Program-made: the position numbers and the translations under genes | Notes under the pieces: generated by a model | Databases searched by the model: none | What the model saw: only the letters and a program-made list of their open reading frames with translations | Told to the model about the DNA's origin: nothing | NCBI GenBank assembly: GCA_963705305.1 | Contig: OY970067.1 | Span: 4,096,001 to 4,160,000 of the forward strand | DNA from: an uncultured Methylomirabilota bacterium | GTDB taxonomy: Bacteria; Methylomirabilota; Methylomirabilia; Methylomirabilales; 2-02-FULL-66-22 | DNA: 64,000 nt | Reading direction: 5' to 3' | Part shown: positions 1,170-2,408 of the stretch, piece after piece | Numbering within the stretch: the first letter of the stretch is position 1 | Layout of the letters: every line of letters begins with the position of its first letter

Positions 1170-1213
1170 CCGATCGCTGACCGCTGATCTCTGACCGCTG
1201 ATCTCTGACCCCT
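1170..1213 (+). repeat. 7-bp tandem array (CTGANNN), left part
   Basis: ccgatcg ctgaccg ctgatct ctgaccg ctgatct ctgaccc ct; the array continues in register after the IS110. Confidence 0.85.
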
Positions 1214-1221
1214 TGTATCTT

Positions 1222-1390
1222 ACCTCCAGGCGCATGGTAGACTACAGCGATTCTGGACGGGACAGACCGACACTCCTGAGGTGGCCATGAGACCGCGAGT
1301 CAGCACGGCTCGTCCCGTCCTTTCCCCTGGAGAGCCCGGACAGTCGCCAGGGCCCCGAGAGCCCGCATCGCGCAAGACCGGGCGTGCAGG
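1222..1390 (+). ncRNA. IS110 bridge RNA (target- and donor-binding loops)
   Basis: Stem GGACGGGAC(1255)/GTCCCGTCC(1312) encloses GAGTCAG (1297), the reverse complement of target CTGACTC. Stem GCCCGG(1334)/CCGGGC(1378) encloses ACAGTCGC (1340, left donor) and CAAG (1373, reverse complement of CTTG). RNA ends are approximate. Confidence 0.8.
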
Positions 1391-1397
1391 AGGCCCC

Positions 1398-2339
1398 ATG
1401 GCAGACGCGCTCGTCGTCGGGGTCGATGTCGCGAAAGCGGAGCTCGTGGTCGCCGTGCGGCCCGGGGGCGCCCAGTGGAGCGTGCCGCAGACCGAGGCCG
1501 GGTGGGCGACGCTCGCGCAGGCGCTGGAGGCCCGGGCGCCCGCCCTCGTGGTCCTGGAGGCCACGGGCGGGCTCGAGGTCCCGGTGGCCGGGACCCTGGC
1601 GGCGGCCGGCCTCCCGGTGGCCGTGGTGAACCCGCGCCAGGTCCGGGACTTCGCGAAGGCGACAGGGATCCTGGCGAAGACCGCCGCCGTCGACGCGCCC
1701 GTGCTCGCCCGCTTCGCGGAGGCCGTGCGGCCGGCGCCCCGGCCGCTCCCCGATGCGGCGACCCAGGCGCTCGCCGCCCTCGTCACCCGGCGCCGGCAGC
1801 TCGGGGCGATGCTCACCGGCGAGCGGAACCGCCTGGCGTCGACCCTGAAGGCTCTCCGGCCCCGGGTCCAGGCCCCCAGCCGGTGGCTCCAGCGGGAACT
1901 CGGCGCGGTCGACGCCGACCTCCGGGCGGCGATCCATCATCACCCCTGCTGGCGCGTGCAGGAGGATCTGCTCCGGACCGTCCCCGGGGTGGGCCCGGTC
2001 CTCGCGACGACCCTCCTGGCGCAGCTCCCCGCGCGGGGCCAGCTCTCCCGGCGCGCCATCGCCGCCCTCGTGGGGGTCGCCCCGTGGAGCCGGGAGAGCG
2101 GTGGGCGGCGGGGACCCCGCCGCTGCTGGGGCGGGCGCGCCGCCGTCCGGCCGGTGCTCTACATGGGGACCCTGGTCGCGATCCGCCACAACCCCGTCCT
2201 CCGGGCCTTCTACGAGCGGCTCCGGCAGGCCGGCAAACTCAAGAAGGTCGCGATCGTCGCCTGCATGCGGAAGCTGCTCACGATCTTGAACGCGATGATG
2301 AAACACCAGCAACCGTGGGAGGCGGCTTCCGCCGCGTGA
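1398..2339 (+). CDS. IS110-family recombinase/transposase, possibly inactive
   Basis: [33 protein letters not shown] and ACMRKLL motifs; RBS GGAGG. KTAAVDA replaces the usual KTDxxDA. Confidence 0.92.
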
Positions 2340-2366
2340 AATGGCTCTTGACATTCAAGACAGTCG

Positions 2367-2408
2367 CTGACTCCTGGCCTCTGGCTGCTGACCCCTGACC
2401 TCTGTCTT
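2367..2408 (+). repeat. 7-bp tandem array, right part
   Basis: ctgactc ctggcct ctggctg ctgaccc ctgacct ctgtctt. Confidence 0.85.

Follow-up and report, generated by a model that had tools for sequence, protein, structure and literature searches.

A bridge-RNA insertion sequence of the IS110 group in a Methylomirabilota genome, probably an immobile relic

The DNA considered here, called the window throughout, is a stretch of 64,000 nucleotides from an uncultured Methylomirabilota bacterium (assembly GCA_963705305.1, contig OY970067.1, positions 4,096,001 to 4,160,000 of the forward strand), and the positions given below are those of this stretch. Close to its start, between 1214 and 2368, lies an element that is almost certainly an IS110-group insertion sequence (IS) with the layout of the bridge-RNA systems. 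Taken as a whole, the reading that we favour is very likely the right one: a bridge-RNA IS of the IS621 kind, of which this particular copy is probably an immobile relic. The IS621 layout had already been proposed in an initial annotation made from the letters of the DNA, whose quoted strings all lie where it had placed them (TATCTT, TTGACA, ACAGTCG, ACAGTCGC at 1340-1347 and CAAG at 1373-1376, among others), and it is borne out by the homology of the recombinase, by conserved ends, by covariation of the RNA structure and by covariation of guides with targets and with donor ends in two sets of relatives. The same annotation spoke of an orthologue of the RNA-guided recombinases, which stands as far as the family is concerned; the working state of the protein is doubtful, with an alanine (A96) at the position of IS621 D102 in an element that occurs only once in its genome.

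Ends, gene and relatives of the element

Relatives of the element came from three sources, namely 60 related genomes, 80 loci of genome_contigs and 80 loci of metagenome_contigs. The genome_contigs loci nearest to the element carry the labels 'bacterium' and 'Candidatus Methylomirabilota'; Nitrospira and Dehalococcoidia are among the labels of the others. Among the first 90 loci, 67 elements (that of the window included) have a recognisable CT|TGTATC left end that lies as far from the gene as expected; two contig duplicates were dropped (L005, the same as L034, and L007, the same as L035), and the alignment of left ends, A1, holds 52 distinct sequences. About 80 usable relatives in total, from two independent collections, served for the tests of guide against target and of guide against donor end, and none of the claims depends on the unpublished genomes G028 and G055. 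The main parts of the element are the following:

1214-2368, + strand: IS110-group insertion sequence of 1155 bp, with the CT core on the right counted in
1212-1213, + strand: CT core dinucleotide of the left junction, kept 5' of TGTATC in all 67 elements
1214-1219, + strand: TGTATC, terminus of the left end
1388-1393, + strand: AGGAGG, ribosome-binding site
1398-2339, + strand: serine/DEDD recombinase gene, an open frame of 313 amino acids with the domains PF01548 DEDD_Tnp_IS110 and PF02371 Transposase_20
2360-2368, + strand: right junction, left donor ACAGTCG (2360-2366) followed by the CT core (2367-2368)

The left non-coding end is 184 nt long (1214-1397) and the right one 29 nt (2340-2368), which is the long left and short right end of a bridge-RNA IS and therefore places the element in the IS110 group and not in the IS1111 group. 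Long terminal inverted repeats, for which no tool search was made, are not apparent. A dinucleotide core, CT, is common to the target and to the joined ends, and it is found at both junctions in the window. Moreover, the left CT|TGTATC recurs in the 67 related elements, and the right AC(A/G)G...-CT is present wherever the right end could be located. Both Pfam domains of the recombinase exceed their curated cut-offs (PF01548 with an E-value of 1.8e-20 and 73.7 bits, PF02371 with 3.8e-19 and 69.3 bits), and residues 6-310 of the protein align with the solved structures of ISCro4 (9t56, E 1.2e-41) and IS621 (8wt6, E 2e-38). No further copy of the element was found in its own 5.65-Mb one-contig genome by DNA or protein search, and a search of the metagenome contigs for copies with exactly the two target guides of the window gave 0 matches.

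A bridge RNA whose loops covary with target and donor

The left end would encode a bridge RNA with two loop modules, whose parts, together with the sites that they match, are listed here; the helices of both modules are those of alignment A1.

1228-1384, + strand: predicted bridge RNA, its start placed from the -10 position and its 3' end from the last helix
1255-1320, + strand: loop 1, target-binding module
1255-1263 with 1312-1320, + strand: outer stem of loop 1, in which all 9 pairs covary
1270-1279, + strand: 5' side of loop 1, the side of the left-target guide, ACACTCCTGA, with the core CT at 1276-1277
1280-1283 with 1291-1294, + strand: inner stem of loop 1, in which the pair G1283/G1291 is broken in the window copy
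1296-1303, + strand: 3' side of loop 1, right-target guide, CGAGTCAG
1334-1383, + strand: loop 2, donor-binding module
1334-1337 with 1380-1383, + strand: outer stem of loop 2
1340-1348, + strand: left-donor guide, ACAGTCGCC, the same letters as the right-end terminus ACAGTCG followed by the C of the core
1350-1353 with 1361-1364, + strand: inner stem of loop 2
1365-1379, + strand: 3' side of loop 2, the side of the right-donor guide, GCATCGCGCAAGACC
1177-1211, + strand: left half of an interrupted heptamer array, CTGACCG CTGATCT CTGACCG CTGATCT CTGACCC
2369-2408, + strand: right target GACTC (2369-2373) and remainder of the array, CT^GACTC CTGGCCT CTGGCTG CTGACCC CTGACCT CTGTCTT
1216-1221, + strand: TATCTT, a -10-like hexamer in the left end
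2348-2353, + strand: TTGACA, a -35 hexamer in the right end

The two stem-closed internal loops seen in the initial annotation proved real, as judged by pairing and by compensatory changes in the 52 left ends. Across the alignment, pairing reaches 96-99.5% in the four main helices, and in the full consensus of 24 pairs (these helices, one isolated pair and a helix of 2 bp) standard pairs occupy 97.4% of the cells, against 89.9% in shuffled alignments and 37-43% when the partners are slid along the sequence. Two-sided, compensatory changes occur in 13 of the 24 pairs, and none of 500 shuffles attained any of the observed pairing measures, a figure that overstates the structural case because the relatives are akin, so that the slid control is the fairer one. 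Apart from the broken pair of loop 1, the RNA of the window departs from the others at C1345, which covaries with the donor end, at A1377, a letter also found in L034, and by alignment gaps near the start codon.

Loop 1 has a constant frame around its guides: on the 5' side the boxes AGACCG and GGTC enclose ten variable letters, and on the 3' side GACCG and AGC enclose six variable letters and an invariant AG. The right-target guide CGAGTCAG is complementary to the right flank CTGACTCC (CT+GACTC+C) at 7 of 8 nt, and five of its six variable positions are matched, a score that none of 30 non-cognate targets equals. GAGTCAG (1297-1303) had been proposed as the reverse complement of CT+GACTC, and this register is correct and holds throughout the family. 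On the left side, the choice of CCGACAC (1267-1273) as guide fell in the wrong register and was rejected, its CCG being part of the near-invariant AGACCG box and the heptamer overlapping the structural ACCG; the true side is ACACTCCTGA at 1270-1279, and in this register ACTCCTGA agrees with the site ACCCCTGA at five of eight non-core positions (A-C-x-C-CT-GA against TGACCC-CT-GA).

Covariation of these guides with the flanks was scored by comparing the six 3' letters with the reverse complement of the right flank, and the ten 5' letters with the top strand around the cut, leaving out the core and allowing three registers. Set 1, from genome_contigs and the genomes of relatives, has 54 elements with both flanks and 31 unique guide pairs; set 2 is metagenomic, with all parts found by regular expression in 27 of 80 loci, and has 19 unique guide pairs. 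The mean scores were:

Set 1, right-target guide: 4.68/6 with cognate targets against 1.68 with non-cognate ones, reached by 0 of 10,000 permutations
Set 1, left-target guide: 5.29/8 against 3.58, reached by 0 of 10,000 permutations
Set 2, right-target guide: 5.00/6 against 2.06, reached by 0 of 10,000 permutations
Set 2, left-target guide: 5.26/8 against 3.47, reached by 0 of 10,000 permutations

Loop 1 thus covaries with the flanking target across the clade, with the pairing logic of IS621, and the comparison of guides and flanks in relatives that had been suggested as a check held in both sets. The complementary question, whether copies with the same loops sit in unrelated targets, was put to multi-copy relatives and to L114, whose loops are nearly identical and whose target is the same kind of array; in one Nitrospirales genome, eight copies with identical loops are all found in CCCCTCCT|TACAAAGG. 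Sub-clades of the family differ by one nucleotide in where the core lies on the 10-nt 5' side. A right guide of 7 nt, once thought to set this element apart, is usual in the clade, where five of the six variable positions plus the core AG are matched in 20 of the 31 unique guide pairs of set 1 (and 6/6 in four more), and it lies within the four to seven nucleotides given for this side of the loop in part of the text of Durrant et al. (2024, PMC11208160). The target specificity is indeed different from that of IS621, as was also claimed, and trivially so, because each IS110 lineage has guides of its own.

The target itself is an 11-unit tandem array of heptamers, split by the element in such a way that the last unit of the left half, CTGACCC (1205-1211), forms the left target. 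Runs of at least five CTGNNNN units number 21 in the genome, the two halves in the window included, where a rough estimate expects about 0.01 by chance. The closest relative, L114 (77% amino acid identity), has the near-identical loops ACACCTCTGA and CAGGTCAG and is also inserted in a CTGAYYN array, again with an imperfect match. In this regard, the target preference that best fits the lineage is a pair of successive CTGAYYN units, ideally GACTC-CT-GACTC (two CTGACTC units), while the occupied site reads GACCC-CT-GACTC, good in its right half and partial in its left. No perfect cognate site was found among the 236 CTGACTC sites scored in the genome of the element, where agreement with the six letters of the guide that lie 5' of the core never exceeds four positions and is three at the occupied site. 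According to a 2026 preprint (10.64898/2026.08.31.748434), IS621 can recombine substrates that match only half of the bridge RNA; an insertion at a half-matching site and drift after insertion are equally good explanations of the imperfect left match.

Other arrays of this kind were observed elsewhere. CTGAYYN arrays of 5-8 heptamers are dispersed in the genome, several of them with common end units (CTGGAGG ... CTGCCTA CTGCATA CTGGCAA), and a near-identical short array sequence (query positions 17-66) gives matches in numerous genomes from the same genus and order. These dispersed arrays may be landing sites of this IS lineage.

Loop 2 matches the joined ends of the element itself. ACAGTCG in this loop had been read as the guide for the left donor, and indeed, of the 60 elements with a located right end, 59 have a guide identical to the donor end (L010 disagrees; five ends were not found), with four heptamer variants, ACAGTTG, ACAGTCG, ACAGCTG and ACGGTTG, changing together in loop and right end. 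On the 3' side, CAAG (1373-1376) is complementary to the CT+TG of the left end, and GCAAG is invariant in the 52 left ends; since both the left end and its guide are invariant, the right-donor side gave no test of covariation.

Joining the ends also brings together TTGACA and TATCTT with a spacer of 17 nt, as the initial annotation had noticed; the recomputed junction agrees, and the same exact TTGACA with the same spacer is found, the window included, in 21 of 65 rows, 20 of them being other elements. As a test on sequence alone, this amounts to a sigma70-like promoter reconstituted across the junction of right and left ends, and a promoter split between the two ends is described for IS621 in section 5 of PMC11208160. 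In the integrated state, a promoter scan of 1100-2500 finds no sigma70-like promoter. A separate observation is an extended -10-like motif, TGGTAGACT, at 1235-1243, some 20 nt inside the left end, with a TGnTAGAMT-like motif seen by eye at the same position in L114, L034, L006 and L035. This motif may belong to the 5' stem-loop of the RNA or act as a second promoter element; as an alternative promoter, TGGTAGACT has no suitable -35 in sight and was not picked up by the scan.

By analogy with IS621, we infer the following course of events for an active element. Excision would join the ends at the CT core, and the promoter TTGACA-17-TATCTT so created would drive both the RNA and the gene. In loop 1, the 5' side, ACACTC-CT-GA, has the letters of the top strand on the left of the cut and so would pair with the bottom one, and the 3' side, (C)GAGTC-AG, would pair with the top strand on the right of the cut, to which it is complementary; loop 2 would read the joined ends of the element in the same manner, through ACAGTCG-C and CAAG. 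Strand exchange between circle and target, at CT, would then be carried out by the complex of recombinase and RNA.

The recombinase and the state of this copy

The recombinase of this copy departs from its relatives at a catalytic residue:

1683-1685, + strand: codon 96, GCC (Ala), aligned with IS621 D102, third residue of DEDD

In an alignment of 162 homologues, position 96 is Ala in the window and Asp in all the 161 others. A96 falls opposite D104 of the 328-residue IS621 chain, which is D102 in the numbering of the paper (an offset of 2). In the comparison with ISCro4, the KTDxxDA motif reads KTAAVDA in the window and the ESG motif aligns. The rest of the catalytic set is kept: D10, E54, D99, S234 and G235 of the window protein are the counterparts of D11, E60, D105, S241 and G242 of IS621, so that of the set D11, E60, D102, D105 and S241 only D102 is replaced. 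In the part of Hiraizumi et al. (2024, PMC11208158) that deals with these residues, D102 of IS621 hydrogen-bonds G242 and holds the loop of S241, and mutation of D11, E60, D102, D105 or S241 abolished recombination both in vitro and in bacteria. Two other changes are found in the window only, H160P (His in 158 of 161 homologues) and E212A (Glu in 159 of 161), and neither P160 nor A212 occurs in its closest relatives; V17, S231 and E233 are features of the clade, common to the window and L114. A contig from a public run spans 1630-1799, codon 96 included, without any difference, which argues against a consensus error at this codon. Another departure in the catalytic set was observed in L034 (the same as L005, a contig of genome G004; 75% amino acid identity), which alone among the 161 homologues has the catalytic serine (IS621 S241) replaced by Arg, and this copy is probably dead likewise.

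With an alanine at the position of an essential residue, and a single copy in the genome, the element is therefore most likely an immobile relic with its frame still open. On the analogy of the IS621 mutants, this copy would probably be unable to move autonomously. Its descent from the IS110 family is unaffected by the missing Asp, because A96 bears only on the activity of the copy.

Several points weigh against this reading, some of them on the death of the copy and others on the bridge RNA. The frame is open despite A96, the RNA is nearly intact, with one broken pair at G1283, and the departures of the protein at conserved columns, 8 of 109, give it only the 10th rank of 86; the effect of a D-to-A change, moreover, is carried over from IS621 mutants. 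A base-calling error at codon 96 is not fully excluded, and the agreeing contig may share the sample of the assembly. From the three public DNA runs, whose contigs are 35-207 nt long, four of five pieces show no differences and no joints were seen, and nothing follows from them either way. Among the public runs none of RNA contains the stretch, and neither RNA, nor circle junction, nor empty site was observed, the expression of the RNA being a prediction from sequence. In the genome, the exact empty site was not found, and the target was for this reason reconstructed from the termini conserved in the family; the only paralogous flank (G000:C1:1866511-1866943) has the halves of its array about 90 nt apart, with a stretch absent from the window. 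The left-target guide of the window, taken alone, matches its site no better than chance, as 7 of 30 non-cognate targets score equally. Rfam 15, under its E-value and gathering thresholds, yielded no bridge-RNA family and only chance-level matches in 900-2700. Finally, the minimum free energy (MFE) fold of 1222-1400 as a single sequence is not unusually stable (z = -0.67), so that the fold of the left end put forward as a check was uninformative by itself and the structural claim rests on the comparison with relatives. The pairing of the 5'-side CUGA with the 3'-side UCAG in this MFE fold was discarded as a by-product, both sides containing the core.

These points can be set against three other explanations. 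One is a recombinase system that is intact, guided by RNA, able to move by itself, specific for a target of its own and open to reprogramming, as suggested by the open frame with its ribosome-binding site, by both loops and termini being intact and by the counterparts of D11, E60, D105, S241 and G242. We regard it as unlikely in view of Asp being universal at position 96 in the other homologues, of the abolished activity of IS621 when D102 is lost, of the window-only H160P and E212A, of the single copy and of the broken pair that closes the loop at the inner stem of loop 1. Far less probable is a domesticated system, in which the dead (A96) recombinase and the near-intact RNA serve the host as an RNA-guided factor that binds DNA or pairs arrays on the heptamer repeats: a frame kept open after the loss of a catalytic residue, and the 21 dispersed CTGNNNN arrays as so many near-cognate sites, would suit such a role, whereas the locus is not known as a conserved one (no orthologous copy was found at the site among the 60 relatives searched), there is drift at several further conserved positions, the prediction gives no promoter for the RNA in the integrated state, and one point change in a single copy is most simply read as recent decay.

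That all the complementarities are coincidental, the left end being merely a 5' untranslated region, is the least probable explanation. The unremarkable single-sequence fold and a left-target match that does not exceed chance agree with it, but it is already contradicted by the covariation of loops with flanks and ends in two independent sets, reached by 0 of 10,000 permutations in each, besides the compensatory changes of the stems and the 59 of 60 agreements between guide and donor end. An IS621-kind element that has probably lost its activity is consequently the reading that we retain.

Genomic surroundings and known systems

To the right of the IS, at some 450 nt, the window has a group II intron (2819-4836), with Rfam matches to group-II-D1D4-4 (2859-2996) and Intron_gpII (4687-4834) and an open reading frame (ORF) at 3286-4677 with RVT_1 and GIIM domains; a second copy, 100% identical, is found at G000:C1:1876254-1878271. 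Further on, an ORF (4941-5477) encodes 178 amino acids with a DUF3553 domain (E 8.6e-10). The paralogous stretch mentioned above, G000:C1:1866511-1866943, shares 94% identity with the right flank of the element (window 2374-2654) over 281 nt and about 85% with the left one (window 1149-1211); it lies some 10 kb from the second intron copy, and this proximity suggests a duplicated region rich in mobile elements. The genome has ten further, distant PF01548 (IS110-family) loci, among which sets of several copies with identical scores (e.g., 2110434, 4386332 and 5101629; or 355639, 961484 and 2107597) indicate that other IS110-family elements have apparently been active in this host.

Beyond the annotation of the element the importance of these results is small. 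The clade offers a clean natural case of covariation between guides and targets, across metagenome-assembled genomes (MAGs) labelled Methylomirabilota, Nitrospirota, Dehalococcoidia and others, in a lineage that appears to land in tandem arrays of heptamers as IS621 does in repetitive extragenic palindromic (REP) elements. On the practical side, an open frame is insufficient to call such a system functional, and engineering would be better served by a relative with Asp at position 96.

Among known systems, those MAG elements (L034-L193; Methylomirabilota, Nitrospira/Nitrospirota, Dehalococcoidia and others) come close to the element of the window, with 52-77% amino acid identity, the same termini, the same guide logic and a common scaffold (AGACCG-10 nt-GGTC...GACCG-6 nt-AGC in loop 1 and GCCCGnACAGTyGCC...GCAAGG in loop 2). 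They differ from it in their guides and targets and in the Asp that all of them have at position 96, and several are present in multiple copies in their genomes, unlike the single element of the window. The best match of its recombinase to a solved structure, compared by protein alone, is the ISCro4 transposase (PDB 9t56). The IS1111 group has the same recombinase family and opposite end lengths, being described in the legend of Extended Data Fig. 10 of PMC11208160 as having short left and long right ends, with long sub-terminal inverted repeats.

The donor termini of IS621 we take to be closely similar to the ACAG...CT/TGTAT of the window. With IS621 of Escherichia coli (Durrant et al. 2024, PMC11208160; Hiraizumi et al. 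2024, PMC11208158; PDB 8wt6) the element has in common the two Pfam domains in an end-to-end alignment, the long left and short right ends, the CT core, the two internal loops, a promoter split between right and left ends, and the arrangement by which each loop's 5' side repeats the top strand and its 3' side is complementary to it, with the core in each pairing; this likeness is drawn from protein, ends and loop layout. Unlike IS621, to which the window protein is only distantly related and whose targets are REP elements (section 5 of PMC11208160), the element sits in a tandem array of heptamers and has an Ala at the position of D102. It is, in these terms, a further member of the well-described IS110 bridge-RNA kind, and follows its rules.

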